From assembly GCA_944386175.1 (NCBI GenBank), contig CALXAB010000001.1, positions 47,645-111,644 on the forward strand: a DNA stretch of 64,000 bases, written 5' to 3'. The position numbers and the translations under genes were made by a program. This DNA comes from an uncultured Clostridia bacterium (lineage in GTDB: Bacteria > Bacillota > Clostridia > TANB77 > CAG-508). A model generated the notes under the pieces. It saw only the letters and a program-made list of their open reading frames with translations. It searched no databases and was not told where the DNA came from. Position 1 is the first letter of the stretch. Each line of letters opens with the position of its first letter. Shown here one piece after another: positions 12,710-60,187 of the stretch.

Positions 12710-13564
12710 TTAAACAGTTGAAACTTCTATATCTAAACTTGAAATAAATTCTTTTAGTTCTTTTATTATTTCTTCAAACTTAATATCATTTGCATATTTA
12801 TTCTTTTTAGCATATCCATTCCATAAACTTACAATTCTATCATATGAAGATATATTATCTAAAATCTGTTCATAATCCTTTAAATATCCAAGCGATTCTC
12901 TTTTATCAAATGTATTTTTTATTGATAGTTTTAAATTCTTAATATCAATATTATCTTTAAATTTGCTTAAAAACATATGTACATCATAGTAATCCTTCAT
13001 TCTGCTATTATACTATCCTCTTCTTAAAATGGTTTCAATTTTTTCAGATATGATTGTTTCAGCGTTATATGTATAAATTAATATCTTTTTATTTTCAAAT
13101 AATGATGGATAACTATACTCCAACTCTTTTGGTACAACTTTATCTCCTGTAGAAATATCAATATCTAAATTAATTTTAACATTTTCTAATTTTCCAATTA
13201 AATGATATTTATTTCCACCATATTCATCATCTTCTCTTATATCAGTTATATCAATTAATTCAAACTTCACTCCATCTTTTAAATCAATATTTAATATTTC
13301 GTTTAAAACTTTTGCCATCTGTTCTTTAGAAATATCTAAACCCTTGATTGTTGTATCCATATCTCTTGTAGTTCTATTATTGATTCCAAATAGTGCTGAT
13401 AACAGTAAACCACCTTTTAATATAAAATTTTCTTGATATTTTGAAAGTGAAATTCTTTCTAAGATTCTTTCAAACATAAATCTTTGTAACAATTCATAAT
13501 GATTTAGTTGGTATTTTTTCTCTAGTTCCTTTGATTTTTGTTTAAGTTCTTTATATTTTATCAC
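12710..13564 (-). pseudogene. abiEii: AbiEii/AbiGii-family nucleotidyltransferase toxin interrupted by an in-frame TAG
   Basis: ORFs 13013-13564 and 12710-13000 are in the same frame, separated by a TAG at 13013-15. Together they are colinear with the intact 281-aa paralog at 53266-54111. Confidence 0.7.
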
Positions 13565-19991: not shown

Positions 19992-20104
19992 ATTTAATTC
20001 GACCTCTTTTCCTTATAACCAATTTATATCACAAAAAGCTAAATTTTCATAGTATTTTACCAATATTTCCAAACATATTTATCCTTAAATTTTAATATAA
20101 TTTT

Positions 20105-20330
20105 ATAAGTACACTTAGTGAACTTTTTCTTAAAAATCACTTCTTTTTTGTTCATTTAGTGAACTTTTGCACTCTAAAAAGCGTTTTTTATCCATTCACT
20201 CGGTGAATTTTTGCATCAGATCTGCATAAAATTTTTGTTTTTTTATTAACTCTTGAAGGCTTGCCCTTCAATGTGTATATGCGTTGCGTAATGCACGCTA
20301 TCCTGCCTTTAGTATTCACTTTAGTTCACC
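20105..20330. repeat. Repeat locus A: three GTTCAC-N3-GTGAAC-like palindromes followed by the conserved roughly 100-nt two-hairpin T element
   Basis: Palindromes at 20109-23, 20150-64 and 20194-208. The T element at about 20224-20313 includes a 7-bp stem at 20253-59/20265-71. It is homologous to loci B, C and D (36.5, 43.2 and 51.0 kb). Confidence 0.85.
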
Positions 20331-35450: not shown

Positions 35451-36125
35451 TTAAAATTCCCTTATATCATATCTAAAATATAGTCCATCCATTTTTATTT
35501 TATGAAAATCTTTTATTATATTTTCTTTGACTTTATTAAAATCTTTTCCTACTCTTCTTAATGCAAATACTCTACCTCCTGAAGGATATAGTATATTATT
35601 TTTTGATATTATATGTTCCCCTATAATATCTGTTGTATTTTTTACTTTGTTCATACCTAAAATTGGTTCATCAAAACTACTTCTTTCTACTTCTGGATAT
35701 CCTGCTGAAAATCCATACATTGCTATAGAAAAGCAGTCTTTTTTCCAACAATTATTTATCTTTTCTACATCTTCATAAAAGAAATTTATTATATCTATAA
35801 AAGGTTTATTCAGTAACCCTAATAAAGCTAACCACTCTGGATTACCTGTTCTTGTATTATATTCTAATACATATACTTTTTTATCTTCGGTAACCATTAT
35901 TCCTATATATAAAATATAGTTATATTCCATATTTTCTTTTTTCATACCTCTTATAGTTGGTTCTATTATATCTTTTTTTAATTGTTCTTCTTTTTCTGTG
36001 CTAACTCTTGCATAAGCACATACTCTTAAATTACCTTTTATAACTTCTCCTGTTGTTCTATTAATTCTTCCTTTTTTCTTCTCTATTACTTGTACTTTCA
36101 AATTTAACCTCTCTTTCTCAAGCAT
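35451..36125 (-). pseudogene. purD: Chimeric ORF: the first 46 codons of a large serine recombinase fused in frame to the 3' about 177 codons of phosphoribosylamine--glycine ligase (purD)
   Basis: Residues 1-46 (and the upstream DNA) are near-identical to the start of the recombinase at 48681-50573 up to ...ARVSTEKEEQ. From about 35983 downstream the product (IIEPTIRGM...VLEYNTRTGNPE...PSGGRVF) is the PurD C-terminal half. No purD 5' half is in the window. Confidence 0.7.
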
Positions 36126-36168
36126 AGAGAATCTTTATGTTTGTATTATATACTAAAATTTTATATTT

Positions 36169-36354
36169 TTAAATACCTATGTGGATTAAATTATATTCTT
36201 TTAAAATATTTTGTTTTAGTTCTAAATATCTTTTCTCTTTAATTAATCCTGCATTATATGTTTTATTTAGAATTGCTATTTTAATGCTACAATTAAAAAT
36301 ATTTTCATTTAGTTTTACATTTTTCGTATTATCAAATTTTACTTCGTACAACAT
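36169..36354 (-). CDS. SHOCT-like small protein (61 aa), partner of the recombinase
   Basis: GLIKEKRYLELKQNILKEY resembles the SHOCT motif. Near-identical to 50617-50802. Always sits immediately upstream of a recombinase gene. Confidence 0.5.
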   Translation of the reverse strand: MLYEVKFDNTKNVKLNENIFNCSIKIAILNKTYNAGLIKEKRYLELKQNILKEYNLIHIGI

Positions 36355-36519
36355 AAAAATCCTCCTCTGCTTGAATTAAATTTCAAAAAAGAGCGACAAA
36401 AAAGCCAGCCGGCTAGCTAGACTGACTTCTTTGTCTTACATTTTTTGATAATACAATTATATTATGCTGTTCTATAAAGTTCAATTCCCGTTTTTTTCCC
36501 TTTTTTCTATTTTAATTGA

Positions 36520-36890
36520 TAAAGCGTTGACTTTTTAGTTAGTACACTAAGTAAACTTGTGTAAAAATTTTTTTAATTATTTTTTACTTTATTATTTTTG
36601 AGTTCACTTAGTGTACTTTTTGTTTTGTATTTAAAAACCTTAGTTCACTTAGTGAATAAAAAACTAACTTTCAAGTACACTTGGTGAACTTTTTCTTAAA
36701 AATCACTTATTTTTCGTTCATTTAGTGAACTTTTGCACTCTCAAAGGCATTTTTTAGCTGTTCATTCGGTGAATTTCCGCATCAAATTTGCTTAAAATTT
36801 TTGTTCTTTTGTTAACTCTTGAAGGCTTGTCCTTCAATGTGTATAGGCGATGTGTGCACACTCGCTTTCCTGCCTTTAGTATTGTTTTTT
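36520..36890. repeat. Repeat locus B: six GTTCAC-N3-GTGAAC-like palindromes plus the T element
   Basis: Palindromes at 36541-55, 36601-15, 36642-56, 36674-88, 36715-29 and 36759-73. T element at about 36789-36878 with stem 36828-34/36840-46. Confidence 0.85.
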
Positions 36891-36891
36891 A

Positions 36892-38670
36892 TCATATATT
36901 AATTACTTTTTGTTGACTCATATATAATTTATAATAATTTCCTTTTATGCTCATTAATTCTTCATGAGTTCCATATTCTACTATTTCTTTATCTTTAATA
37001 AAAAATATTCTGTCACTATCCACTATTGTAGATAATCTATGAGCAATCGTTATTACAGTTTTATTTTTAACCATTTCTTTTGTTAGATTTTGTAGCATTT
37101 TTTCTGTTTTTACATCAATCTTACTTGTTGCTTCATCGAAGATTAATATTTTAGGGTTATTAATAATTGTTCTTATATAGCATAATACCTGTTTTTCTCC
37201 ATCTGATAGATTTTTTCCATTACTACTTAATTTTGTATTGTATCCATCTTCTAAACTCATTATCCAATTATGTACATTCAATCTTTTACATATTTCTATT
37301 ACTTTATCATCAGTTATATTTTCATTTCCATATTTTAAATTTTTCATAATGCTTGTACTAAATAAGTAATTTTCTTGTTGCATAATAGCTATCTGTTTTC
37401 TAAGTCTATTTAGTTTTATATTTCTAACATCTTCTCCATCAATAAAAATATTTCCTGAATCTATATCATAAAATCTTCCAATTAGATTTGTAATAGTGGT
37501 TTTTCCACTTCCTGTACTACCTACAATAGCTACTTTTTCTTGCGGTTTTACTTTAAAAGATATATTATTTAAAACTTTATTATTTTCTATATAAGAAAAA
37601 CTAACATTTTTAAATTCTATTTCACCTTTTATTTTGATGTCTTTAGCATCTATTTTATCTTTTATATCTATTTTTTCATCCATTGTTTCAAATATTCTCT
37701 CTAAATATGTAATTGAATTAATAAAATCATCTAATGTTTTAAATAAGTCTTCTATAGGTTGCCAAAAGTTAGATGAATAACTTCCCATAGCAACAATAGT
37801 TCCAACTGATGTAGTTGGATATAAAAACATCGCTCCTACAAAATATATTGTTGCAGTTACCCAATGTGACATTGTTTGTACACTACACCATCCAATATTG
37901 CCAAATTTTATTTGTTTGCAACTTGCATCTTTCCAACTTCTACTTAAATCATTAAATATATCTTCATTCTTTTCTTCTCTATTAAATGCTTGGGTTATTT
38001 GCATTCCTTTTAATGTTTCTAATAGATATGCATTAGTATTAGAATTTTTATTATTAATTAGTAATTTATTTTTTCTCTTTATCTTAGCTGTTGAAGCAAA
38101 TATAAAAATAAGTATTACTATTCCAACTAATGCGATTAATGTTAGTTTCACACTTGTTAAAAACATAAATATCAGAATAATAAGCATATTAAATATGTTT
38201 AAAAATGTTGTTACTAATTTATCTGTAATTAGAGTAGAAACATCTTCTGCATATTCTGTTAGTCTAACTAGTATTTTTCCATGAGGTCTTGTGTCGTAAT
38301 AATTAACTGATAAATACTGAATATGTGAAAACAAATCATTTTTTATATCTTCTACAATATTTTGATTTACTTTAGCCAACATTTTTTTATACACTTTAGT
38401 TACAATAATAGACAATAATACTAAAAATAATGCTAATAATATTATGATAAACAATTTTTCATAATCGCTATTAGGAATAACATCATCGATTACATATTGT
38501 AGTATTTTAGTGATAAATAAAGTAGCTATAATAGATATACAATTTAAAATAAATATAATAATCAATTTTGATTTATATTTTTTTATGTATGTTAAACCTC
38601 TTTTATAATTAGAAAGACTGAATGAAGTATTTTTTTCATCTTGGTCATATTTGTTTACACTCATATACAT
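36892..38670 (-). CDS. ABC transporter, fused permease/ATP-binding protein (type I exporter)
   Basis: Six-TM N-terminal domain. Walker A GSTGSGKTT. Signature LSDGEKQ. Confidence 0.85.
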   Translation of the reverse strand: MYMSVNKYDQDEKNTSFSLSNYKRGLTYIKKYKSKLIIIFILNCISIIATLFITKILQYVIDDVIPNSDYEKLFIIILLALFLVLLSIIVTKVYKKMLAKVNQNIVEDIKNDLFSHIQYLSVNYYDTRPHGKILVRLTEYAEDVSTLITDKLVTTFLNIFNMLIILIFMFLTSVKLTLIALVGIVILIFIFASTAKIKRKNKLLINNKNSNTNAYLLETLKGMQITQAFNREEKNEDIFNDLSRSWKDASCKQIKFGNIGWCSVQTMSHWVTATIYFVGAMFLYPTTSVGTIVAMGSYSSNFWQPIEDLFKTLDDFINSITYLERIFETMDEKIDIKDKIDAKDIKIKGEIEFKNVSFSYIENNKVLNNISFKVKPQEKVAIVGSTGSGKTTITNLIGRFYDIDSGNIFIDGEDVRNIKLNRLRKQIAIMQQENYLFSTSIMKNLKYGNENITDDKVIEICKRLNVHNWIMSLEDGYNTKLSSNGKNLSDGEKQVLCYIRTIINNPKILIFDEATSKIDVKTEKMLQNLTKEMVKNKTVITIAHRLSTIVDSDRIFFIKDKEIVEYGTHEELMSIKGNYYKLYMSQQKVINI

Positions 38671-40379
38671 TCCTCCATATTATTTACTTGAATATCATAA
38701 ATTTCTTTATATTCTCCATTCTTATTCAATAATTCTTCATGTGAACCACTCTCTATGATTTCTCCGTTTTTCATTACAAATATGACATCAGCATTTTTTA
38801 CAGAAAGAATTTTTTGTGCAATTATAATTTTTGTACATCTATATTTCAAATTATTAATATTTTCAGTAACTTCTAATTCAGTTTCAAAATCTAGTGCGGA
38901 AGTTATATCATCTAATATTAATATACTAGGTCTCTTAGCTAATGCTCTTGCCAAAGATAAACGCTGTTTTTCACCTCCTGATAAACTCACTCCATTTTCT
39001 CCTATTATTGTATTAATATCCTCTGGTAAATCAAATACATAATCAGCTTTAGCCAATTTTAAACATTTTTTTATTTCTTCTTCTTTTAAATCTTCATTTC
39101 CAAAACTAACATTATTGGAAATAGTATCAGAAAACAGAAAAGGAGTTTGAGAAACATAACCGATATTTTTTCTTAATGATTTTAATGTATATGTATTTAT
39201 TAAATTATCGTCTATTTCTATCTTTCCACTTGAACATTCTATCAGTCTTAACATCAGTTTTCCAATAGTAGATTTTCCACTCCCTATTTCTCCAATAAAT
39301 GCATAAGTCTTATTGGGCTTTAAATCTAAATTAATATTTTTTATAACTTTCCTATTATTAAGTTTGACATTAACCCCTTTAAAAATAATATTTTCCCAAT
39401 TATTTAATATTAAACTTCCTTTATCTTTTATTTTAGGTTCAGTTTCTAATAATTTTCTTACTTTTGATACAGATACTCTAAATTGTTGCCATTCATTTAT
39501 AAAACCACTTAATTCTATAAACGGTTTTCTTATAGTGCCTATAAAAGAATTAATAATAATAAATTGTCCCATTGTCGTGTAACCTTTTATAACAAATATT
39601 CCCCCAAATAAAGTTAATAATATTTGCATACAATATGATAAAAATGTGACTATATTGTCATAAGAGATATTCATATTTTGTATTTCTAAATTCTTATTTT
39701 TCAAATTTCTATTCTTTACTTTAAAGTTATCTATTTCTTTTTGTTCTGTTGCAAATGTTTTGATTAATCTATTTCCTTCTATATTTTCTTGTATATAATT
39801 ATTTAGGTTTGACAAACTTTCTCTTTGATCTTTATATAATTCCTTTGATTTTTTTATATGTTTTTTAGATATAACTGCAATTATAGGAGTAGGTATTAAA
39901 ATAATTAGTGTTAAAATTGGGTTTATATATAGGCAGTAAATTGTAGTTAAAATACTAGTAGTTAACATGCTTATAGATTGTTTTATCACAAAACACATAT
40001 TATGATGAATAATGCTATTATCTGTTGTTAAAAGCGTGCTTATTTCTCCCAAAGTTTTTTCTTCGTAAAAATCTTGATTTAATTCATTCAATTTTTTATA
40101 ACATTCAACTTTTAACTTATGTGCTAAATTAAATCTAACATGATCCATTATTAATATTCCAAAATAAGTTATCAGCCTACCTATAAAATACATACTAATA
40201 GATATAATAAAAAGGTATGGAATAATAGAAAAATTACTCTCATATATACCTTTATCTATTATTTCTCCTAATAGTATAACTGGTAATATTTTAGAAATTC
40301 CTCCACCTAATATTATCATTAAATTTGAAATCCAATATCTAAAATTATATTCTTTAATAAATTTTAATACCCATCTCAT
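38661..40379 (-). CDS. ABC transporter, fused permease/ATP-binding protein (partner half-transporter)
   Basis: GEIGSGKST, LSGGEKQR and ILILDD motifs. Overlaps the downstream partner gene. Confidence 0.85.
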   Translation of the reverse strand: MRWVLKFIKEYNFRYWISNLMIILGGGISKILPVILLGEIIDKGIYESNFSIIPYLFIISISMYFIGRLITYFGILIMDHVRFNLAHKLKVECYKKLNELNQDFYEEKTLGEISTLLTTDNSIIHHNMCFVIKQSISMLTTSILTTIYCLYINPILTLIILIPTPIIAVISKKHIKKSKELYKDQRESLSNLNNYIQENIEGNRLIKTFATEQKEIDNFKVKNRNLKNKNLEIQNMNISYDNIVTFLSYCMQILLTLFGGIFVIKGYTTMGQFIIINSFIGTIRKPFIELSGFINEWQQFRVSVSKVRKLLETEPKIKDKGSLILNNWENIIFKGVNVKLNNRKVIKNINLDLKPNKTYAFIGEIGSGKSTIGKLMLRLIECSSGKIEIDDNLINTYTLKSLRKNIGYVSQTPFLFSDTISNNVSFGNEDLKEEEIKKCLKLAKADYVFDLPEDINTIIGENGVSLSGGEKQRLSLARALAKRPSILILDDITSALDFETELEVTENINNLKYRCTKIIIAQKILSVKNADVIFVMKNGEIIESGSHEELLNKNGEYKEIYDIQVNNMEECI

Positions 40380-40960
40380 TTATATTTTTTCTCCAATATT
40401 TATTATATTTTTATATTACTTTTCATATTCTATCATAATTTTATTTCTTTCTCAATAAAATTATAAAGTTTCAAAATATATTTATCCTTACATTTGCTTA
40501 ATTATGAAAAAATCCGCAATAGAAATAATGTCAAGAGCGAGTGATAATGAGTTTATTTACTCTTGATATTATTTTTATTGCAGATTAAATTTACCCTGCA
40601 AATGTATGAGGCAAAAAATAAGTATCAGTACATATCTACCGACACTTAAATTTATAAAGATTCTCTATTACTTATTTCATAAATTCTTTCTAGCAATTGA
40701 AATAACTGATAATTTTACATATCTACAATTAAACACAACCTATATATGTCATGCTTATCATAGACACAATCTCAAATTCCCTAGTATTTCAAACACTTCT
40801 ATCAATTTTCTAAAATTTAATTTATGTGTTTCCACTTACCACATCTGCAACTACTTTAACTTTCACATCTGAATTTTGATGTTTTTCTCTTCCATATCTT
40901 CCTTTTTTCTCGAAAGTTATAATCTCTGAAAACATATCAAATTCAAGTATTACCTGTCCT
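40380..40960. other. Conserved non-coding E region downstream of recombinase 2. It holds a 26-bp imperfect inverted repeat with a 23-nt spacer (40512-40585) and about 400 bp that are about 90% identical to 58140-58560
   Basis: Direct comparison of the two stretches in the window. The only ORF here (40606-40872, plus strand) is not conserved in the second copy. Confidence 0.7.
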
Positions 40961-40963
40961 GTT

Positions 40964-42679
40964 TTAGTTGTAGCACTGCCACACATTCCACATGTGTTGG
41001 TCATCTCTGGTTGCAGTAAGTTTTAAATGTTGTTTATCTCCTGTTGCAGTAAAATTGTCTTTACAATTTATTTCTGTTCCGTTTTTACAAATAAACCTTA
41101 TTGTATATGGATTTATTGTACCATTTTCTAATGTTTCCCCAATTATTACTTTCTCTATTATACATTCAAAAATATCTTTATCAAAATTTTTCATTATTTC
41201 CATATCTTTAAATAAACCTTTAAACTTGTTTAATCTATGTTTAATACTTTCATTTCTGTTTGTGTCTTTTAGTAGGTTTTGTATTTTCTGTTCTACTTTT
41301 AATAGTTCTATGTTTAGCTCATCATATTTTAAAGTATATTGTTCTTTATTTATTCTGCCTTCTAAGTTTAGTTCTAATAGATTATTAAGTTTCTTGTTTA
41401 TTTTCTCTTTGTCTTTTTCTAGCTTATTTACTACTGTTTCTGTAGTATTTTCTTTTAAGACATTTTCTATTTTTTCTAAAAAATCTTCTACTACTTTTTT
41501 ATTGTTGTTACAGAGTATTCTATATCCTTGTACAAAACAATCTTCTAGTATTTCTTCTGGTATTGCTTTACAGTATGGGCATTCTTCTTTTCCATGTTTT
41601 GCTCTTTTGATACATTGCCATACTGCTTTTTCATATTTTCTTTTTGAGTTCCAGTTTCTTCTTGTAAGTAAGCTACCACAAAATCCACAATATAATTTAC
41701 TACTAAAAGCATATTTCTTACTATAGTTATTATTTCTTCTTCCTGTTTCTCTTGTTCCTACTCGTTTTATTCTTATTTCTTGTACTCTATCAAATAACTC
41801 TTTACTAATAATTGGCTCATGATGTTCTTTTATATAATGCTTTTCTGCTTCTCCTAAATTGCTTAATCTTTTATGTGATATTGGATCTATTGTAAATGTT
41901 TTTCCCATTAGCACATCTCCAATATATTTTTCATTTTTTAGTATTCCTCTTATTGTTGATTCGTTCCAATTATCATTACCTTTTGGGGATTTAATGCCTT
42001 TTGCTTTTAGTTCTTTTGCTATTGTACTTGAACCTATTCCGTCTACATATCTTTCAAATATATATTTTATAACTTCTGCTTGTTCCTCATTTATAGTTAT
42101 CTGTTTTGTTATTAAATCATAGTTATAACCGTAACAACCATTATAGCCAATTAACTCTCCCCTGTCTTTCTTCATTTTTAGTCCAAGCAATACATGTGAA
42201 GATATGTTCTCACTTTCTTGTTGTGCCATAGCACTTAATACTGTTAGTAGCATTTCTCCTGTTCCTGATAGAGTATTTAGATTTTCTTCTTCAAATAAAA
42301 CTGCAATGTTCTTTTCTTTTAGCATTCTTACATATTTTAAAGTATCTAATGTGTTTCTAGCAAATCTTGATATGGATTTTGTTAAAATCATATCAAATTT
42401 TCCAGACATTCCATCTGTTATCATTTTCATAAAGTCTGTTCTTTTAAAATCTAATGTGCCACTTATAGATTCATCTGCATATATTCCTGCAAATTGCCAT
42501 TCAGATTTGCTATTGATTTTTTCATCATAATACTTTAATTGTGATTGGTAACTATTTAATTGTTCTTTATTTCCTGTACTAACTCTACAATATGCACATA
42601 CTCTTAATCTTTCTTTGATTGTTGTACCTGTTACTCTGTTAATTCTTCCGTTTGTTTTCTCTATGACTTGAATTTCCAT
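40964..42679 (-). CDS. Large serine recombinase (resolvase/invertase-type catalytic domain plus recombinase and zinc-ribbon domains); C-terminus frameshifted
   Basis: RVCAYCRVSTGNKEQ is the catalytic Ser region. 571 aa. The last about 58 residues are encoded in another frame (ORF 40822-41004, similar to the C-terminus of the recombinase at 48681-50573). The shift is near 41018-41029. Confidence 0.8.
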   Translation of the reverse strand: MEIQVIEKTNGRINRVTGTTIKERLRVCAYCRVSTGNKEQLNSYQSQLKYYDEKINSKSEWQFAGIYADESISGTLDFKRTDFMKMITDGMSGKFDMILTKSISRFARNTLDTLKYVRMLKEKNIAVLFEEENLNTLSGTGEMLLTVLSAMAQQESENISSHVLLGLKMKKDRGELIGYNGCYGYNYDLITKQITINEEQAEVIKYIFERYVDGIGSSTIAKELKAKGIKSPKGNDNWNESTIRGILKNEKYIGDVLMGKTFTIDPISHKRLSNLGEAEKHYIKEHHEPIISKELFDRVQEIRIKRVGTRETGRRNNNYSKKYAFSSKLYCGFCGSLLTRRNWNSKRKYEKAVWQCIKRAKHGKEECPYCKAIPEEILEDCFVQGYRILCNNNKKVVEDFLEKIENVLKENTTETVVNKLEKDKEKINKKLNNLLELNLEGRINKEQYTLKYDELNIELLKVEQKIQNLLKDTNRNESIKHRLNKFKGLFKDMEIMKNFDKDIFECIIEKVIIGETLENGTINPYTIRFICKNGTEINCKDNFTATGDKQHLKLTATRDDQHMWNVWQCYN

Positions 42680-43100: not shown

Positions 43101-43229
43101 AGAAACTAGAATCTTTCTAATCCCTTTGCTCTTTCTCTTTCATACTACCATTATATTATCGTGTTTTTATATAGTCAATTCCATTTTTATTCCCTCTTTT
43201 CTATTTTTGATATAATTCTAGTATCTAAT

Positions 43230-43620
43230 TTTATAAGTACACTAAGTAAACTAAAAATTGTATAATTTTAAATTGCAGTTCACTTGGTGTACTAGAAAAA
43301 TATAACAAAAGTTCACTAAGTGTATTTGTAAATTTTGTTTTATTTTCACATTCACTTAGTGAACTAAATTCAAAAATATTATTCAATATCAAGTACACTT
43401 GGTGAACTTTTTCCCAAAATAAGTGAATTTTTTTAATTTTTTAATTCACCATTTTTAATTTTGAACGAAGAATAGCGGGTTTGAGCCAGTTCACCGAGTG
43501 AATTTTTACATCATATTTGCATAAAATTTTTGTTTTTTTATTAACTCTTGAAGGCTTGTCCTTCAATATGTATAGGCATTTTGTTAAGAATGCTATCCTG
43601 CCCTCATTTTCAATGAGGTA
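43230..43620. repeat. Repeat locus C: seven palindromes (one widely spaced) plus a T element with a variant second hairpin
   Basis: Palindromes at 43237-51, 43278-92, 43311-25, 43350-64, 43393-407 and 43489-503, plus GTGAAT-N14-ATTCAC at 43424-49. T element at about 43519-43600. Confidence 0.85.
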
Positions 43621-48680: not shown

Positions 48681-50573
48681 TTATACTACTCCGCACACCA
48701 TGTCAACTTCTATCGTTACTTTAATTTTATGATTTTCTGTTCTTTTAACCTTATTTTTGCCTTTTCTATCAAAACTAATAAAATCTTCAAAAGCAGTAAA
48801 TTGGGCTATTGTATCGAATCTTTCAGACATAGCACCGAGCAACACTCCACATGGCTCACACCCAGTCTGTAGATAGTTTTGGCTTACCTCGTATGATGAC
48901 TGTTGCAAACTACCTTGATTTTTATCTTTTTGACATTTGATTTCGTTTCCAGATTTTAGGATAAATGTTATTACTCTTGGATTTACATCTCCATTTTGTT
49001 CTTTTTCTCCTATTATAACTTTTTCTATCATTAATTCAAAAACATCTTTATCAAATGTTGGCATTATTTCATCATCTTTAAATAGACTTTTAAACTTGTT
49101 TAATCCTTGATTTAAACTAATTGAATCTTCTAACTCTAGTTGTAAATGTTCTTGCTCTTTTTCTATTTTGTTTATCTTGTTTTGTAATTTTGCCTTTTTA
49201 TCTTTTAATGTTTCAAGTGTTATTGTTCCATTCAAGTTTAAATCAATTAACTTGTCTATCTTTTCTTTTAAAGTTTGTTTTTCTTCTTCTAATTTTTTAA
49301 TAGAACTTTCATTACTTTCTTCTTGTATGATTTCTTCCATTTGTTTTAAGAATGTTTTGATTAGTTTTTTGTTATTATTACATAAAAGTTTATAACTTTC
49401 TGTAAATGCTTCTTCTATAATGTTTTCTTTCATTGCTTTACAATATGGGCAATTTTCTTTTCCATGTTTTACAAATTCCATACAATGCCATACCGTAATA
49501 CTATTTTTTGTTCCAGAGTGCCAGTTTCTTCTTGTTAATAAACTTCCACAAAAACCACAATATATTCTACTACTAAAAGGATATTTTCTGCTAAAGTTTC
49601 CTTTTCTTCTTCCAGAGCCTCGTACTCCTCCTCGCTTTTGTAATATTTCTTGTGCTTGATTAAACATTCTTTCTGAAATAATTGGTTCATGATGTTCTTG
49701 TATGTAATACTGATTTTCTTCTCCCATATTGACTACTCTTCTATGTGAGATTGGATCTGTTGTATATGTTTTTCCTTGTAAGACATCTCCTTTGTATTTT
49801 TCGTTTTTCAAAATACCTCTTATAGTTGAGTCATGCCATTGTTTCTTTCCTGTTGGTGTTTTATATTTCATAGCAGTTAGTTCTTTTGCAATTGTTGTGC
49901 AACCTACTCCTTGACAGTATCTTTCAAAGATATATCTTACTATTTCTGCTTCTTGATAATTTACTGATATTTTCTTTGTTTCTTTATCATATACATATCC
50001 TAAACATCCATTATATCCAATTAATTCTCCTCTTTTTTGTTTCATCTGTAATCCTAGTTTTACATGAGAAGATATATTTTCGCTCTCCTGCTGTGCCATT
50101 GCACTCATTACTGTTAGCATTACTTCGCCAGATAATTCTAAAGTATTGATGTTTTCTTCTTCAAAATAAATAGTGATTCCTTTTTCCTTTAATAATCTTA
50201 CATACTTTAAAGTATCTACTGTATTTCTTCCAAATCTTGATATTGATTTTGTAATTATCATGTCAAATTTGTTTTCTGTTGCATCTTGCATCATTCTCAT
50301 AAAGTTATCTCTTTTATAGTCAAGTGTTCCTGTTATCCCTTCATCTGCATAAATCCCTACATAAGTCCAATCACTTCTTGATTTTATTTTTTCTTCATAA
50401 TATTTTAGCTGAGAATTATAACTATTTATTTGTTCTTCTTTTTCTGTACTAACTCTTGCATAGGCACATACTCTTAAATTGCCTTTTATAACTTCTCCTG
50501 TTGTTCTATTAATTCTTCCTTTTTTCTTCTCTATTACTTGTACTTTCAAAATTAACCTCTCTTTCTCAAGCAT
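48681..50573 (-). CDS. Large serine recombinase (full length, 630 aa by the ORF track; a TTG start at 50549 gives 622 aa)
   Basis: LRVCAYARVSTEKEEQ is the catalytic Ser region. Large recombinase domain with a Cys-rich region. About 70% identical to the recombinase at 40964-42679 and identical to the chimeric ORF at 35451-36125 over the first 46 codons. Confidence 0.85.
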   Translation of the reverse strand: MLEKERLILKVQVIEKKKGRINRTTGEVIKGNLRVCAYARVSTEKEEQINSYNSQLKYYEEKIKSRSDWTYVGIYADEGITGTLDYKRDNFMRMMQDATENKFDMIITKSISRFGRNTVDTLKYVRLLKEKGITIYFEEENINTLELSGEVMLTVMSAMAQQESENISSHVKLGLQMKQKRGELIGYNGCLGYVYDKETKKISVNYQEAEIVRYIFERYCQGVGCTTIAKELTAMKYKTPTGKKQWHDSTIRGILKNEKYKGDVLQGKTYTTDPISHRRVVNMGEENQYYIQEHHEPIISERMFNQAQEILQKRGGVRGSGRRKGNFSRKYPFSSRIYCGFCGSLLTRRNWHSGTKNSITVWHCMEFVKHGKENCPYCKAMKENIIEEAFTESYKLLCNNNKKLIKTFLKQMEEIIQEESNESSIKKLEEEKQTLKEKIDKLIDLNLNGTITLETLKDKKAKLQNKINKIEKEQEHLQLELEDSISLNQGLNKFKSLFKDDEIMPTFDKDVFELMIEKVIIGEKEQNGDVNPRVITFILKSGNEIKCQKDKNQGSLQQSSYEVSQNYLQTGCEPCGVLLGAMSERFDTIAQFTAFEDFISFDRKGKNKVKRTENHKIKVTIEVDMVCGVV

Positions 50574-50616
50574 AGAGAATCTTTATGTTTGTATTATATA
50601 TTAAAATCTTATATTT

Positions 50617-50802
50617 TTAAATACCTATATGAGTTAAATCATATTCTTTTAAAATATTTTGTTTTAGTTCTAAATATCTTTCCTCTTTAATTAGTCCTGC
50701 ATTATATGTTTTATTTAGAATTGCTATTTTAATGCTACAATTAAAAATATTTTCATTTAGTTTTACATTTTTCGTATTATCAAATTTTACTTCGTACAAC
50801 AT
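50617..50802 (-). CDS. SHOCT-like small protein (61 aa)
   Basis: Near-identical to 36169-36354. The 105-aa ORF-track model (to 50934) runs through a terminator hairpin and is probably over-extended. Confidence 0.5.
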   Translation of the reverse strand: MLYEVKFDNTKNVKLNENIFNCSIKIAILNKTYNAGLIKEERYLELKQNILKEYDLTHIGI

Positions 50803-50832
50803 AAAAATTCTCCCTTGCTTAAATAAAATTTC

Positions 50833-50880
50833 AAAAAAGAGCAATAGAAAAAGCCAGTCGGCTAGCTTCGACTGACTTCT
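50833..50880 (-). terminator. Putative rho-independent terminator (stem CAGTCG/CGACTG with a GCTAGCTT loop, then a U-rich tract on the minus strand)
   Basis: Read directly at 50855-50874. The homologous position at 36.39-36.43 kb is degenerate. Confidence 0.35.
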
Positions 50881-50979
50881 TTGTCTGACATTTTTTGATA
50901 ATACGATTATATTATGATGTTCTATAAAGTTCAATTCCCGTTTTTTTCCCTTTTTTCTATTTTAATTGATAAAGTGTTG

Positions 50980-51350
50980 ATTTTTTAGTTAGTACACTAA
51001 GTGAACTTGTGTAAAAATTTTTTTAATTATTTTTTACTTTATTATTTTTGAGTTCACTCGGTGTACTTAGTTTTTTATTATATCAATTTTTAGTACACTT
51101 AGTGAACTAATTATAAATTATTTCATAAAATTTAGTACACTTGGTGAACTTTTTCTTAAAAATTACTTATCTTTCGTTCATTTAGTGAACTTTCACACTC
51201 TAAAAGAGATTTTTTAGTCATTCATTCGGTGAATTTTTGCATCAAATTTGCTTAAAATTTTTGTTCTTTTATTAACTCTTGAAAGCTTGACCTTCAATGT
51301 GTATATGCGTTGCGTGATGCACGCTATCCTGCCTTTAGTGTTCACTTTAT
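50980..51350. repeat. Repeat locus D: six palindromes plus the T element (about 95% identical to locus B)
   Basis: Palindromes at 50992-51006, 51052-66, 51093-107, 51135-49, 51176-90 and 51220-34. T element at about 51251-51345 with stem 51279-85/51291-97. Confidence 0.85.
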
Positions 51351-53265: not shown

Positions 53266-54111
53266 TTATTTTTTTAATTCATTCTTTATTTCTTCTAATA
53301 CTCCCATCGTATCTTCATAATTAATATCTTCTGCATAACTAAATTTAGATTGATAATTCTTCCAATGCTCTTTCAGAACATCACTTTCTTTTATAACTTC
53401 CATTATCTCATTTATATTATTTAATTTATCCATTGAACCTCTATATTCAAATTTCTTCAATATAGCTTGTCCTAATAATTCTTTATTAAAATTTTGTTGT
53501 TGAGTAGTCCATAATATATAAATATCATAAAAATCTCTCGCTCTTGTAGTATCTATATTTCTTGATATAATTGTTTCAAATTTATCAGCTATTACTGTTT
53601 CCATATTATATGCTAATATTTCTATTGAACGATTTTCAAACATTAAATCGAACTTATAATTTACTTCTTTTGGAACAATTACATCTCCTGTTGTTATATC
53701 TAATTTCATTGGTACAACTAACTTATCAAATTTAGCATCTAAAGCTACTCTGTATCCTCCATATTCATCTTCTTGTCTTATTTCTTTTATACTTCTAAAT
53801 TCAAATGCTACTCCATCATCTAAATCTATATTAAAAATTTCATTTAAGATATTTTCAAGATTATCCTTTTCTAAATCAAATCCTTTTATCGTTGCATCCA
53901 TATCAAGAGTATTTCTCATGTCTATTCCAACTATTGCTGTTATTAACATTCCTCCTTTTAATACAAATTTATATTTGTATTTTGATACCGAAATTCTTTC
54001 CAATAGTCTTTCTAGCATATAGTTTTGTAAAATAATGTTTTCATTCACATCTACTTTATCTGACATATTCTTTATCCATGCTTTTAATTGTGCTCTATTT
54101 TTTGCTATCAC
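53266..54111 (-). CDS. abiEii: AbiEii/AbiGii-family nucleotidyltransferase toxin (intact)
   Basis: KGGMLITAIVGIDMRNTLDMD is the NTase motif. 281 aa. A 4-nt overlap (ATGA) with the upstream antitoxin gene. Confidence 0.75.
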   Translation of the reverse strand: MIAKNRAQLKAWIKNMSDKVDVNENIILQNYMLERLLERISVSKYKYKFVLKGGMLITAIVGIDMRNTLDMDATIKGFDLEKDNLENILNEIFNIDLDDGVAFEFRSIKEIRQEDEYGGYRVALDAKFDKLVVPMKLDITTGDVIVPKEVNYKFDLMFENRSIEILAYNMETVIADKFETIISRNIDTTRARDFYDIYILWTTQQQNFNKELLGQAILKKFEYRGSMDKLNNINEIMEVIKESDVLKEHWKNYQSKFSYAEDINYEDTMGVLEEIKNELKK

Positions 54112-57833: not shown

Positions 57834-57939
57834 ATTCTATTCTCCTAATCTTTACTGTATATAATATATCATAAATTCCTTAATTTTACAATGAAATCGC
57901 CAATATTTTAATATTACATATATCTTTACATTTGCTTAA

Positions 57940-58560
57940 CTACCCCAAAATCTCCAATAGAAATAATGTCAAGAGCGAGTGATAACAAGTTCATTTACTC
58001 TTGACATTATTTGTATTGGAGATTAAAATTGCTTTGCAAATGTATAGCACAAATTTTTCGCTTTTTTCGTGATATAAAATTCCATCGGACGAAAATTTCA
58101 ATTTTTTCGTCCGATAAATTTTTATAAGCCGAATTTCATTAAATTTTCGTCCTATAAAAAATAAGCATCAGCAGATATCTACCAACACTTAAATTTATAA
58201 AGATTCTCTATAACTTATTTCATAAATTCTTTCTAACTATTAAAATAACTAATAAATTCACATATCTACTAACCACCTCAACCTATATATGTTTTTCTTG
58301 CCATAGATACAATCTCAAATTTCCTAGTATTTCAAACACTTTCATCAATTTTCTAAAATTTAATTTATGTGTTTCCATTTACCATATCTGCAACTACTTT
58401 AACTTTCACATCTGAATTTTGATGTTTTTCTCTTCCAAATCTACCTTTTTTATTAAAAGTTATAATCTCTGAAAACATATCAAAATCAAGTATTACCTGC
58501 CTTTCTTTAGTTGTAGCACTGCTACACACTCCACATGTGTGGTCGCTTATAAATTCAATT
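57940..58560. other. Second copy of the E region: 26-bp IR pair (57950-58023), a roughly 100-bp insertion holding a perfect 12-bp IR hairpin (58084-58115), the conserved non-coding stretch, and a remnant of a recombinase 3' end (about 58380-58556, no start codon)
   Basis: Aligned directly against 40500-41000. The remnant translates to ...CGVCSSATTKERQVILDFDMFSEIITFNKKGRFGREKHQNSDVKVKVVADMVNGNT*. Confidence 0.7.
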
Positions 58561-58597
58561 ACAAAATTTTTTTTTGAATATTAAAAATTTTTTATGT

Positions 58598-60187
58598 TTA
58601 TGCTCTTAACTTAAATGTTTTTGGTGCATATTTATATGCCACAAACAATGAAATCAAAGAATAAAGTATGCAAAAAACAATTGTTGCTATTCCAAAAGAA
58701 AATGTAGGTAGTTGTATTTGTATCATATACCAACATACAAAATAAGTTATTCCTTGTACCACTGTATATGTACTACTTTTCATTTCTGTGCTAACATTAT
58801 AAGGTTGAAGTAAATAGTACATTACTAAATAGTGGACTGAAAAAAATACACTCATTGCTATTATAGATATTATCAAAATAGCATAATTTAATGAATTATT
58901 TGTTCCACCAGATAAGTATAGTAATAAAGCTAATCCTAATCCTATTAGTGTTGCTGGTAATAGATTTATTACTATTAAAGTTTTTAATCTTTCTTTAAAT
59001 ATTCCAAGTATAACTTTTGGTGTTCTATATATTCTATATGTAAGCATACTGTAGTCGCAATTCATGAACATTGCTTGGGTAACAGATGAACTCCTATTTA
59101 TACAATACATGATAAACACAAAATATGGCAAATATACCATTAATATTTTATTTATTCTATCCTTAAGTCCGTTATTTATCAAAATCCCAATAATTAGTGC
59201 AATAAAAATAAATAATATAACAATCGATTGTTTTTTTACTGCTTTTGTTAAAATCTTGCTATGTCTTTTTACAAATAAATCATGAAAATATGCAAATCCA
59301 GATTTATTACTTGTATAGTTTTCATTCAATTCTATTTGTTTTAGACTTACATTTTTTATAGCTTGTGTTCCAGTATTTTTCTCTTGCATATATACATTGT
59401 TTTCTGTCAATATTTGTTTATACATCTTTTTATAATCTTTAAAATTATGTATTTTTATTAAACTGTAAATTCCTATTATTATTGAAATAATAAATATAAC
59501 TAAGAAAATATTCTTGTTTAATACTATATTTATAGCTGGTAATCCATAAGCTAATAATAGACACACTCCTACAAATCCCCAGACAAATTTTGTTGGTAAG
59601 TTTTCATTTGATGCCTTGTTTGTCTTCTTAAAGTAATATATGCTGTAATTCATTACAATTAGCTTTATTGCTACCACAAAAAATGGTAATACTATTTGAA
59701 TCCACAAGGGTACTTCTGTTATCATTCCAAATAAAATTGTAAATGGTAAAAAGCCAATAATCAGTTTTAATAATTGATAATAGTAATTAGATAAGCCATA
59801 TTCTCTTGCATTTATATTCATTAAAACTATTGCATAATATTTGTCTTTTGTTGGATTTAACATATATGTGTTTAAAACTCCTCCACATAGTGTTAAAAAG
59901 GTAAATAAATGTATAAACATATCTGATTGATTTGTTTTATACCATGATAATGCCATAAATATCATGGCTACAATATATATGATTTTTCCAATAAATATAC
60001 TTAATATTTCATATAATATACTTATAATATTTGCAAATATTTTTAATCCTTTATTTTTATATAAACTATTTGGCAATATTTTTTTAATAATTGGGAGTTG
60101 TTTTATAGAATAAATAATACTATTTATTCTATATGTATTTTTTAATTTAAAGGATGTTATAAATGTTTCTATCATATTAAATTTCAT
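58598..60187 (-). CDS. ABC-2-type transporter permease (polytopic membrane protein)
   Basis: 529 aa with about 10-12 TM segments. Directly downstream of an ABC ATPase gene. Confidence 0.55.
   Translation of the reverse strand: MKFNMIETFITSFKLKNTYRINSIIYSIKQLPIIKKILPNSLYKNKGLKIFANIISILYEILSIFIGKIIYIVAMIFMALSWYKTNQSDMFIHLFTFLTLCGGVLNTYMLNPTKDKYYAIVLMNINAREYGLSNYYYQLLKLIIGFLPFTILFGMITEVPLWIQIVLPFFVVAIKLIVMNYSIYYFKKTNKASNENLPTKFVWGFVGVCLLLAYGLPAINIVLNKNIFLVIFIISIIIGIYSLIKIHNFKDYKKMYKQILTENNVYMQEKNTGTQAIKNVSLKQIELNENYTSNKSGFAYFHDLFVKRHSKILTKAVKKQSIVILFIFIALIIGILINNGLKDRINKILMVYLPYFVFIMYCINRSSSVTQAMFMNCDYSMLTYRIYRTPKVILGIFKERLKTLIVINLLPATLIGLGLALLLYLSGGTNNSLNYAILIISIIAMSVFFSVHYLVMYYLLQPYNVSTEMKSSTYTVVQGITYFVCWYMIQIQLPTFSFGIATIVFCILYSLISLFVAYKYAPKTFKLRA

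Follow-up and report, generated by a model that had tools for sequence, protein, structure and literature searches.

Organization of the locus

The window is the whole stretch of DNA that was analysed, 64,000 nt long. At 40380-41045 it holds the 3' end of a large serine integrase gene (recombinase 2) and, further along in the direction of that gene, a short open reading frame (ORF), a non-coding stretch, a hairpin and a promoter. Several of the features listed below refer to rumA (rlmD), the gene for a 23S rRNA uracil-5 methyltransferase.

40964-42679, minus strand: recombinase 2, large serine integrase of 571 aa with Pfam Resolvase, Recombinase and Zn_ribbon_recom domains
40995-41025, minus strand: integrase-side att arm (P arm), the 3' coding end of recombinase 2, which holds ACTGCAAC; left flank common to L022, L030, L032, L035, L047 and L103
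40972-40994, minus strand: crossover (core) region CATGTGGAATGTGTGGCAGTGCT, the block common to rumA, integrase genes and element ends
40950-40994, minus strand: substitute rumA 3' end, by translation HVECVAVLQLKQDR and stop; completes rumA where this end adjoins rumA (attL)
40822-40992, minus strand: type-C integrase tail ORF (CGMCGSATTK...VVSGNT and stop), in the frame of recombinase-3-type integrases, not that of recombinase 2
40650-40821, minus strand: conserved non-coding stretch (3' UTR-like), 86% column identity
40613-40648, minus strand: intrinsic terminator T1 with a 12-bp stem, 6-nt loop and T6 run, conserved in 16 copies
40490-40605, no strand assigned: extended hairpin, outer stem formed by ACATTTGC (40598-40605) with GCAAATGT (40490-40497)
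40511-40586, no strand assigned: hairpin inverted repeat with 27-nt arms (40560-40586 and 40511-40537) and a 22-nt loop
40427-40455, minus strand: outward promoter TTGAGA-17-TGaTAGAAT, directed into the cargo; best promoter match (10/12, with TG)

The order 3' of the core was the same in every copy of this module: substitute rumA end, alternative integrase tail of about 56 aa, intrinsic terminator, hairpin and outward promoter, after which the cargo diverges. Homology among 17 copies stops directly past the -10 box of the promoter, and in the window an ABC transporter gene starts downstream of it, at 40379, as cargo. T1 was the only terminator-like match in 40300-41100 (0.0 expected), and its variation among copies can be accommodated by wobble pairs in the gene strand.

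A duplication of about 590 bp provides a second copy of the module in the window.

57852-58544, minus strand: E2, second module copy, with the core at 58515-58537, the tail at 58365-58535 and T1 at 58156-58191
Further parts of E2, minus strand: 105-nt hairpin insert at 58044-58155, inverted repeat at 57949-58024, -10 box at about 57861-57875

Segments 40613-41002 and 58156-58544 were 89.5% identical over 390 bp, in agreement with the first-pass annotation, which had put some 400 bp at about 90%; 40416-40607 matched 57852-58045 at 78%. The second inverted repeat that it had reported is also present (57949-58024), with arms that match between the loci at 23/26 and 24/26 positions rather than 25/26. 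Outside the tail, no ORF is conserved across the non-coding stretch on either strand, as had been noted; the small ORFs in it (25/31 aa and 88 aa) are not retained in other copies and were dismissed. A structured RNA was predicted in the 170-nt UTR-like stretch and rejected, since 96.0% of it was paired compared with 95.8% after shuffling, and 105 of 500 shuffles reached as high a value. Rfam covariance models gave no gathering-score match on the non-coding stretch, the E-value mode returning spurious microRNA-hairpin matches far below threshold, and no tRNA genes were found.

Junction mapping

In related loci all junctions lie inside a 23-nt core, about 385-500 nt upstream of the inverted repeat. 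By this mapping the recombination site is the core CAYGTGGARTGTGTRGCAGTGCT at 40972-40994 and 58515-58537, the two exact matches in the window (0 expected). Related gut Clostridia contigs carry the core at the 3' end of rumA (attL) and also at the 3' end of integrase genes (attR, or attP-like junctions in tandem arrays). The target gene adjoining the module in the related loci scored 357 bits against TIGR00479 rumA (cutoff 184).

Junctions of rumA, core and the tail-C module were found in L005-L010, L019, L021 and 12 further metagenome contigs; in L005 and L007, rumA terminates in DMFPFTGHVECVSVLQLKQSM and stop by way of the same block as 40950-40994. The integrase gene is joined through the core to the native rumA end GTGGAATGTGTAGCAGTTCTTAATTTAAAATAA, which reads VECVAVLNLK and stop in the rumA frame, in L023 and L045, and to a tail in the window, L001-4, L011-13, L022, L030, L035 and L047. 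Common to all junction types is CAYGTGGARTGT(GT), a short direct repeat found both in rumA and within the integrase gene. The core is read in three frames, as HVECV... in rumA, (E)PCG(V/M)... in the recombinase-3 type and HMWNV in the recombinase-2 type, and one core is common to several integrase subfamilies.

Two module copies in one window might also have arisen by segmental duplication or by homologous recombination between related islands, with no site-specific step. The long homology needed is there (integrase genes 72% identical, upstream A-regions 91% identical), and a cross of attP with attL is not expected of serine integrases. We nevertheless consider this very unlikely, because general recombination would not place the left homology boundary at one and the same 23-nt core both in the window and in over 40 unrelated contigs, the left flanks being of at least five kinds. 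The E region at 40380-41045 and its copy are, with high probability, the element-side, left terminal module of a mobile genomic island whose large serine integrase targets the rumA 3' end. The rumA gene is absent from the 64,000-nt window, so no island of this array is visible joined to its target; no excised circle, circular contig or empty rumA site was recovered.

Recombinases 2 and 3 and the reading frame of the tail

The first-pass annotation had set the region in a serine-recombinase system, and this was borne out. Recombinases 2 and 3 both contain Resolvase, Recombinase and zinc-ribbon domains and keep the RVST motif with the catalytic serine as well as the family-invariant residues; the catalytic domain of recombinase 3 matched PDB 3g13, a 'putative conjugative transposon recombinase', with E = 1e-57. 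An exact-sequence look-up of recombinase 3 gave no match.

48681-48853, minus strand: core and type-A tail, in frame with recombinase 3; junction of the first and second islands

In recombinase 3 the core, at about 48831-48853, is inside the ORF, and the AlphaFold model shows the tail as four beta strands with a pLDDT of only about 60. The short repeat 3' of this gene, once suggested as a cognate att site, turned out to be a small hairpin after the type-A tail stop. The type-C tail is fused in frame to an integrase in P0012 and P0052; its dN/dS is 0.58, and 2/17 copies carry a stop codon. As a widespread protein domain the tail was rejected: it had only 54 matches among 1.8 billion representatives, nearly all of 40-134 aa, and the sole long match was a spurious tandem-repeat protein.

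The earlier interpretation of recombinase 2 was that it may be a frameshifted pseudogene or an assembly error, with the inverted repeat as a serine-recombinase binding or recombination site and 58380-58556 as a dead remnant. It was correct in observing that the tail and recombinase 2 are in different frames; the ORF 40822-41004 is homologous to the recombinase 3 C-terminus, and a TAA at 41023-41025 closes the tail frame. The shift does not come from a single indel in the A/T run at about 41018-41029, as had been proposed, since the two frames differ from about 41050 already. Among recombinase-2-type genes, eight independent examples from different assemblies share this frame across the core (...TATR(E/D)xQHMW.. 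and stop), as do the database proteins P0066 and P0067, and in recombinase 2 all three domains and the family-invariant residues are intact; inactivity or misassembly is thus not supported. The final 10 or so codons of the gene cross the att core. Homologous integrases are about 85% identical as far as ...ENYLQKxSEPC and then diverge abruptly, with many tail lengths. On the comparison of these genes, the "shifted" frame is a trait of the recombinase-2 clade, neither an assembly error nor a fresh pseudogene. Recombinase 2 abuts the tail of the next island and its type reads the core in another frame than the recombinase-3 type, which is why the tail seems frameshifted. The supposed remnant likewise has another identity: 58365-58537 is an ordinary element-side arm, found beside rumA in most copies. 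Taken as a whole, the earlier interpretation is most improbable.

Programmed frameshifting that would join recombinase 2 to the tail was rejected on the basis of stops in the tail frame no more than about 30-100 nt upstream of the core (window, L030, L035 and L036). The many database integrases that start MKMMQDA had suggested another junction, in the 5' portion of the integrase gene; this was discarded when their context showed integrase genes split into 70 + 494 aa.

The tandem array

The window contains at least three tandem islands, all on the same strand:

58544 down to 48854, minus strand: island 1, ending in recombinase 3
48853 down to 40995, minus strand: island 2, ending in recombinase 2
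40994 down to about 35977, minus strand: island 3, truncated, ending in 48 integrase codons fused to half of purD

Defence, resistance and transporter genes make up the cargo of the islands. Pfam identified no relaxase, coupling protein or type IV secretion genes in the ORFs of all three (35451-60187), several of which lack a Pfam match. Two details count against the island reading: the odd terminus of the third island, with its integrase codons and half of purD, and the left flank of E2 (58538-58600), which has neither rumA nor an integrase gene.

Strand exchange would take place within the block of about 23 nt common to rumA, the integrase 3' end and the island end. Because the att site lies inside both rumA and the integrase gene, integration would make the two genes trade 3' ends: rumA would be completed by 15 island-supplied codons, and the integrated integrase would lose its tail of about 56 aa and stop a few codons past the core. 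Only the excised circle, or a place where two islands abut, would bring tail and integrase together again. Beyond the tail, transcription would meet T1, then a very stable hairpin selected for pairing, and then the outward promoter, which would drive the variable cargo. The comparisons show the junction positions, the conservation, the reading frames and the covariation in the hairpin; from these we infer that the integrase catalyses the exchange events and that the array grew by site-specific accretion. Serine integrases normally recombine only attP with attB, which is at odds with attP-like junctions inside arrays.

The hairpin

The inverted repeat described earlier downstream of recombinase 2 is real, and its arms pair at 23/26 positions. 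Its folding z-scores were -6.3 (gene strand) and -9.3 (plus strand), with 0/200 shuffles folding as well, and the arm motif occurs at only four places in the window (0 expected). Across the 44 distinct copies in which the hairpin is conserved, there are about four compensatory changes: C:G to G:C in E1, C:G to A:T in L022 and L119, T:A to C:G in L023, and A.C to G:C in L035 and L130. Column identity is 97-98% in the arms and 83% in the loop, whose length lies between 21 and 24 nt. An invariant TTTT follows the stem, in which two A.C mismatches are fixed on the gene strand; the RNA hairpin of that strand reaches -26.7 kcal/mol compared with -35.8 on the other strand. Single substitutions show no strand bias. 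Similar DNA was not found in plasmid and phage collections.

A 26-bp arm does resemble a serine-integrase half-site, the feature on which the idea of a recombination site was based. Half-sites of serine integrases abut the central dinucleotide; here the arms are separated by a loop of variable length. Homology runs through both sides of the repeat in the 17 aligned and 44 distinct copies, and the hairpin is never a junction, the junctions being at the core.

Among the roles considered for the hairpin, that of a terminator or insulator is the likeliest. Our preferred reading, held tentatively, is that T1 and the hairpin together insulate the cargo promoter against read-through from rumA or the integrase gene. 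Several properties speak against a terminator proper: T1 is already upstream, a 27-bp stem with so long a loop is atypical, the conserved A.C mismatches weaken the RNA hairpin on the gene strand, and the single substitutions lack a strand bias. A simple terminator scan made no call.

Alternatively, the hairpin may be a regulatory palindrome, either an operator for an island or host protein on the cargo promoter or the carrier of an embedded antisense promoter, or both. The left arm holds the promoter-like motif TTGATA-17-TAAATT in antisense; a plus-strand promoter TTGATA-17-TA(A/G)AAT would yield an antisense transcript of either the integrase gene's 3' end or that of rumA, and a -35/-10-like motif is found in nearly all copies (TAAAAT, TAGAAT or TAAATT). 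A regulatory role would be in keeping with the conservation of the arms, which is the highest in the module, with the 90% conservation of the stretch from repeat to promoter and with a conserved 61-aa protein of unknown function (36169-36354) encoded at the opposite island end. We still judge such a role unlikely. The variation in loop length would alter the phasing of two duplex half-sites, the compensatory changes indicate pairing and not base-specific contacts, promoter-like matches are frequent in AT-rich DNA (9 against 6.5 expected), and no solitary hairpin arm was found elsewhere in the islands.

The hairpin might also act as single-stranded or cruciform DNA, as a transfer origin or single-strand origin by which relaxase-less islands are mobilised by a helper conjugative element. 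A long imperfect palindrome (about 115 nt with the outer stem), in which pairing is selected, the arm sequence is invariant and single changes are without strand bias, would fit an origin, as would its position in the non-coding island end and the lack of relaxase and transfer genes in the islands. Relaxase-less mobilizable elements are known (PMC5704250). The hairpin resembles no known origin and has no match in the plasmid and phage collections, the type-A end module belongs to the same system without having such a hairpin, and no helper element was identified; we regard an origin as decidedly unlikely. A further reading, quite unlikely in our estimation, gives the hairpin of about 115 nt a dedicated cis-acting function, as DNA or as RNA, in a large and undescribed family of relaxase-less rumA islands from gut Clostridia. 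It would serve either as a hairpin-type origin of transfer or priming that hijacks helpers or as an integrase-controlling operator with an antisense promoter, and loss of the beta-strand tail on integration would in addition switch the integrase between integration and excision forms.

Comparison with known systems

The biology is largely as already described, and elements that target rumA are a known kind. The analysis corrects two tempting misannotations, an intact integrase read as a frameshifted pseudogene and a hairpin read as a recombination site, and places the att core to within 23 nt. Streptococci and C. difficile were already known to have islands with rumA-specific serine integrases; in uncultured low-GC gut Clostridia such islands form long tandem arrays on one strand, with each cargo block of the array behind a standard terminator-hairpin-promoter module. 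The module and the core are simple sequence handles for delimiting islands in metagenomes, and they supply candidate attP/attB pairs for integrase engineering.

Staphylococcal (SCCmec) and enterococcal (ECC) cassette chromosomes use Ccr serine recombinases to insert at the 3' end of rlmH (orfX) without destroying the gene, and they stack into composite tandem arrays with resistance and defence cargo. The islands described here resemble them as serine-recombinase islands in tandem arrays at the 3' end of an rRNA methyltransferase gene. They differ in their target, rumA rather than rlmH, and in having the att core inside the integrase gene, whereas SCC att sites are not inside ccr genes. The Ccr models (CcrA, CcrB and CcrC) scored 82-133 bits (cutoffs 700-900), and only 128-133 bits where the cutoff is 900.

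A close likeness is that to streptococcal ICEs and IMEs and to CTn5 of Clostridioides difficile (PMC4701971), which share the large serine integrase, the rumA 3' target and the direct repeat in both genes. Single serine integrases specific for rumA are associated with direct repeats of 2-21 bp in rumA and the integrase gene, and in the streptococcal elements a reciprocal exchange of 3' parts gives both proteins an altered length, sequence and frame (Ambroset et al. 2016, PMC4701971). The present islands would undergo the same exchange of 3' ends with a change of frame, the excised form having a different integrase C-terminus. Unlike the streptococcal elements, they are without conjugation or mobilisation genes, carry defence, resistance and transporter cargo, reside in uncultured low-GC gut Clostridia and use several integrase subfamilies on one core. 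Their conserved terminator-hairpin-promoter end module is not described for the streptococcal elements, and rumA stays open through 15 codons of island-supplied sequence, which also sets them apart.

In the account of phage Mx8 of Myxococcus cited in PMC4701971, attP lies inside a tyrosine integrase gene, and integration gives a short C-terminus and hence two enzyme forms. Here, too, integration would replace the integrase C-terminus, with a serine instead of a tyrosine recombinase. Tandem accretion and CIMEs, in which related or decayed elements occupy one target with chimeric internal att sites, have been reviewed by Guedon et al. (2017, PMC5704250). The accretion covered there mostly involves tyrosine integrases, and a mechanism for serine integrases is not established; the array in the window is of the serine type.

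Organization of the window

Between ~3.9 kb and 64 kb, nearly all long ORFs of the window are encoded on the minus strand, and the G+C content is ~25%. The parts relevant to E1, the flagged region, and to E2, its second copy, are listed below.

Features in gene order (high to low coordinates). The A-region is the island end opposite the element-end module; recombinases 2 and 3 are large serine integrases.
58598-60187: membrane ORF, 529 aa
58544-57852, minus: E2, after the membrane ORF
After E2: cargo (110-aa ORF, phosphotransferase, two GNAT acetyltransferases, Sel1 protein, AbiEi/AbiEii, 617-aa ORF)
50573-48681, minus: recombinase 3, 630 aa, preceded by an A-region of ~770 nt
After recombinase 3: cargo (HD, histidine-phosphatase fragment, Schlafen/AlbA_2 protein, 483-aa ORF)
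42679-40964, minus: recombinase 2, 571 aa, preceded by a diverged A-region and followed by E1
40379-36892, minus: two ABC transporter genes, after E1
36125-35451, minus: integrase codons 1-48 fused to the purD 3' half, preceded by a third A-region

The genes at 3878-63951, nearly all on one strand, make up a patchwork across the whole window, which also contains three HisRS-like paralogues with hisG, hisZ and hisIE, a D-Ala-D-Ala dipeptidase, GNAT acetyltransferases, a Fic protein, several ABC transporters and two AbiE pairs (12972-13489 resembles 53513-54030). Most of the 64 kb may be one island array.

The recombination core and its junctions

Up to ...ENYLQKxSEPC, the homologues of recombinase 3 share ~85% identity; beyond it they diverge abruptly, with tails of many lengths (proteins of 563, 577, 585, 622 and 633 aa) and, in a few, fused unrelated domains. 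This break point is the DNA position at which the resemblance of E1 and E2 begins. The core motif was searched in 135 related loci (neighbours of homologous proteins, 79 genome loci and 46 metagenome loci), and one core, CAYGTGGARTGT(GT), was found. Its left flanks are of several kinds, its right flanks of a few.

Core positions.
40972-40994 and 58515-58537: the 23-nt exchange block, two occurrences in the window versus 0 expected
about 48831-48853: type-A version of the core

One left flank was the 3' end of a gene that terminates in ...DMFPxTxHVECV and scored 357 bits against the NCBIfam rumA/RlmD model (cutoff 184). The others were 3' ends of integrase genes, from at least four subfamilies, and a few further sequences. 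On the right were a type-C tail module, seen in E1, E2 and ~44 distinct copies, the type-A tail module that lies downstream of recombinase 3 or, in loci L023 and L045, TAGCAGTTCTTAATTTAAAATAA. Because it reads (VECV)AVLNLK and then a stop in the rumA frame, TAGCAGTTCTTAATTTAAAATAA is most simply taken as the original rumA end. These are the junction kinds expected of one site-specific system, with rumA joined to an island end as attL, integrase joined to the rumA end as attR, and integrase joined to an island end as attP-like. The first-pass annotation had considered the 26-bp inverted repeat as the crossover site; this candidate was rejected, since the junctions of related loci fall at the 23-nt core instead.

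The same core was observed in at least two further integrase subfamilies (L043, L045, L047, L064, L034, L035:6129 and L063:11879), whose 3' ends read ...CCACACCACACAT and ...CCTGTGACACAT, which suggests that several diverged integrases compete for one rumA site.

Reading frames across the core

Three frames cross the core.
rumA frame, 40994-40950: HVECVAVLQLKQDR and a stop, allowing completion of rumA by the island
recombinase-3 frame: ..PCG(V/M)C..., running on into a ~56-aa tail
recombinase-2 frame: ..QHMWNVWQCYN and a stop

The out-of-frame end of recombinase 2 had raised the possibility of an assembly error. This is contradicted by eight independent recombinase-2-type genes from different assemblies (L022, L023, L030, L034, L035, L036, L047 and the window), all of which use the recombinase-2 frame and terminate no more than a few codons from the core, as do the database proteins P0066 and P0067. 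The shifted frame of the window is not an assembly error, and re-sequencing would leave it unchanged. Several of these genes have stop codons in the tail frame shortly upstream of the core (TAA at 41023-41025 in the window), and when the DNA upstream of the core in recombinase 2 is read in the other frame (LQQ...NxLQ...CG), homology to recombinase 3 is still recognisable. The recombinase-2 clade has thus undergone a frame shift in its past. This change is old, is shared across the clade and has left the enzyme otherwise intact. The tail adjoining recombinase 2 belongs to the neighbouring island.

The integrase tail

Tail types A, B and C share 30-47% peptide identity. All 13 distinct type-A copies were intact, and their dN/dS was 0.42 in frame versus 0.65-0.69 out of frame. 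For type C the signal was weaker (0.58 versus 0.66-0.78), 2 of 17 copies had a stop, and the end position varied. In the AlphaFold model of recombinase 3, residues 550-585, including the core-encoded EPCGV, form a disordered linker, followed by four beta strands at 587-623 with a pLDDT of only ~60. The tail is rare among proteins: 1.8 billion representatives gave 54 matches, most of them to short ORFs. We take it to be a probably genuine, though dispensable, part of the C-terminus, probably joined to the integrase only in the circular or abutting state.

In the recombinase 3 homologues P0063, P0058, P0065 and P0046/P0048, the C-terminal parts are swapped for unrelated domains or sequence; replacements include a Schlafen/Fic-like C-terminus, ParB and NUDIX, and in P0046/P0048 the core is followed by an unrelated tail. 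These are probably integrase-to-cargo deletions or assembly chimeras. The integrase gene of the rumA-inserted island in L005-L010 (9752-11485) is split into ORFs of 70 and 494 aa and, unlike recombinase 2, is a real candidate pseudogene. The island ends after two small genes, followed by serS, in L007 and L009, and L005, L006 and L008 have additional cargo there.

The element-end module

All four features of the first-pass annotation were found in the window: the inverted repeat, its second copy, the duplication of the non-coding DNA and a tail that is out of frame. These observations stand, and their interpretation has largely been replaced. An alignment of 17 copies showed conservation from the core to a -10 box, then complete divergence into different cargo.

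Parts of the module, in E1 order.
Core and tail: 94% column identity
Non-coding stretch, 170 nt: 86%
40648-40613, minus: T1, an intrinsic terminator, 95%
Small ATAGGACGAAAA...TTCGTCCTAT hairpin: zero, one or two copies
Large hairpin (the 26-bp inverted repeat), then 56 nt at 90%
40455-40427, minus: promoter TTGAGA-17-TGaTAGAAT

T1 was the sole terminator-like match in 40300-41100 (0.0 expected), and the 105-nt insert of E2 (58044-58155) consists of two small hairpin units. When copies were compared on both strands, the non-coding DNA held no conserved ORF except the tail, as had been claimed. The type-A module downstream of recombinase 3 has the tail, promoter-like sequences and the small hairpin, which is the "CGTTGACA" repeat noted earlier; the large hairpin was not found in it. 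At the opposite end lies the A-region, which contains a conserved 61-aa ORF and is itself conserved in >30 loci. The islands thus combine two standard ends with free cargo.

A-region copies of ~760 nt, upstream of recombinase-3-type integrases, were observed at 36126-36915, 50574-51342, 43138-43602 and 20086-20323. The last is partial, has no integrase beside it and suggests further decayed islands lower in the array. The 61-aa ORF (36169-36354) is 80% identical to its L005 counterpart, has no Pfam match and is a candidate regulator or directionality factor.

The large hairpin

Forty-four distinct copies of the large hairpin were found, 400-517 nt downstream of a core except for a few with an internal deletion, which lie ~127 nt from the core. 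Three copies had no core found upstream, and across the window and related loci the hairpin was never found alone or elsewhere. Its duplication in the window was upheld, with arm matches between the loci of 23/26 and 24/26 rather than the 25/26 claimed. The arms agree with each other at 23 of 26 positions around a 22-nt loop. Conservation within the module is highest in the arms (97-98%; loop 83%, 21 to 24 nt), and an outer 8-bp stem (ACATTTGC with GCAAATGT) lengthens the structure to ~115 nt. Both strands fold far more stably than shuffled sequence (gene strand, z = -6.3; opposite strand, z = -9.3), and the opposite strand folds better because two A.C mismatches are fixed on the gene strand.

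Pairing-preserving double substitutions, about four of them independent.
C:G to G:C: E1
C:G to A:T: L022, L119
T:A to C:G: L023
A.C to G:C: L035, L130

That these changes keep pairing argues that pairing is under selection, whichever the strand or molecule (RNA or DNA); single transitions were wobble-compatible equally often on both strands. An invariant TTTT follows the hairpin on the gene strand, and long AT-rich hairpins are common at gene ends in the window. We tentatively prefer to read the hairpin as a second terminator or insulator, which would shield the cargo promoter from transcription exiting rumA or the integrase gene. Alternatively, it may be a regulatory palindrome (the left arm holds a conserved TTGATA-17-TA(A/G)AAT resembling an antisense promoter), or a hairpin-type transfer or priming origin for relaxase-less islands. 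In the window the left-arm motif reads TTGATA-17-TAAATT (plus strand, 40563-40591), in antisense orientation and facing the core; the -10 of other copies reads TAAAAT or TAGAAT.

Array formation and comparison with known elements

rumA was not found in the window, and E2 has neither rumA nor an integrase as its left flank. In ORF 35451-36125 (minus), codons 1-48 of a recombinase-3-like integrase, with the catalytic RVST, are fused at ~35977 to the 3' half of purD (TIGR00877 positions 235-419). Its upstream A-region (36126-36915) is intact, the junction was in none of the other loci compared, and the purD 5' half was not in the window. Either a deletion cut the third island short here, or the fusion is a misassembly. 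Because attP-like junctions inside arrays are not an expected product of serine integrases, accretion may involve other routes: less strict site selection, homologous recombination among the related integrase genes, or the transfer of composites as a whole.

A review covers the tandem accretion of elements of this kind, decayed relatives included (PMC5704250). The catalytic domain of recombinase 3 matched PDB 3g13, a "putative conjugative transposon recombinase" (E = 1e-57). Streptococcal elements with a single serine integrase insert in rumA, with direct repeats of 2-21 bp located in rumA and the integrase gene, and CTn5 of C. difficile also inserts there (Ambroset et al. 2016, PMC4701971). 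Their integration reciprocally swaps the 3' parts of rumA and integrase, changing the length, sequence and frame of both proteins, so that in the excised element the integrase has another C-terminus (PMC4701971). The 3'-end exchange at rumA is an already described phenomenon, and the region belongs to a known kind of element that here carries one well-conserved hairpin. The host group, uncultured gut Clostridia such as Candidatus Merdicola, is new for rumA islands.
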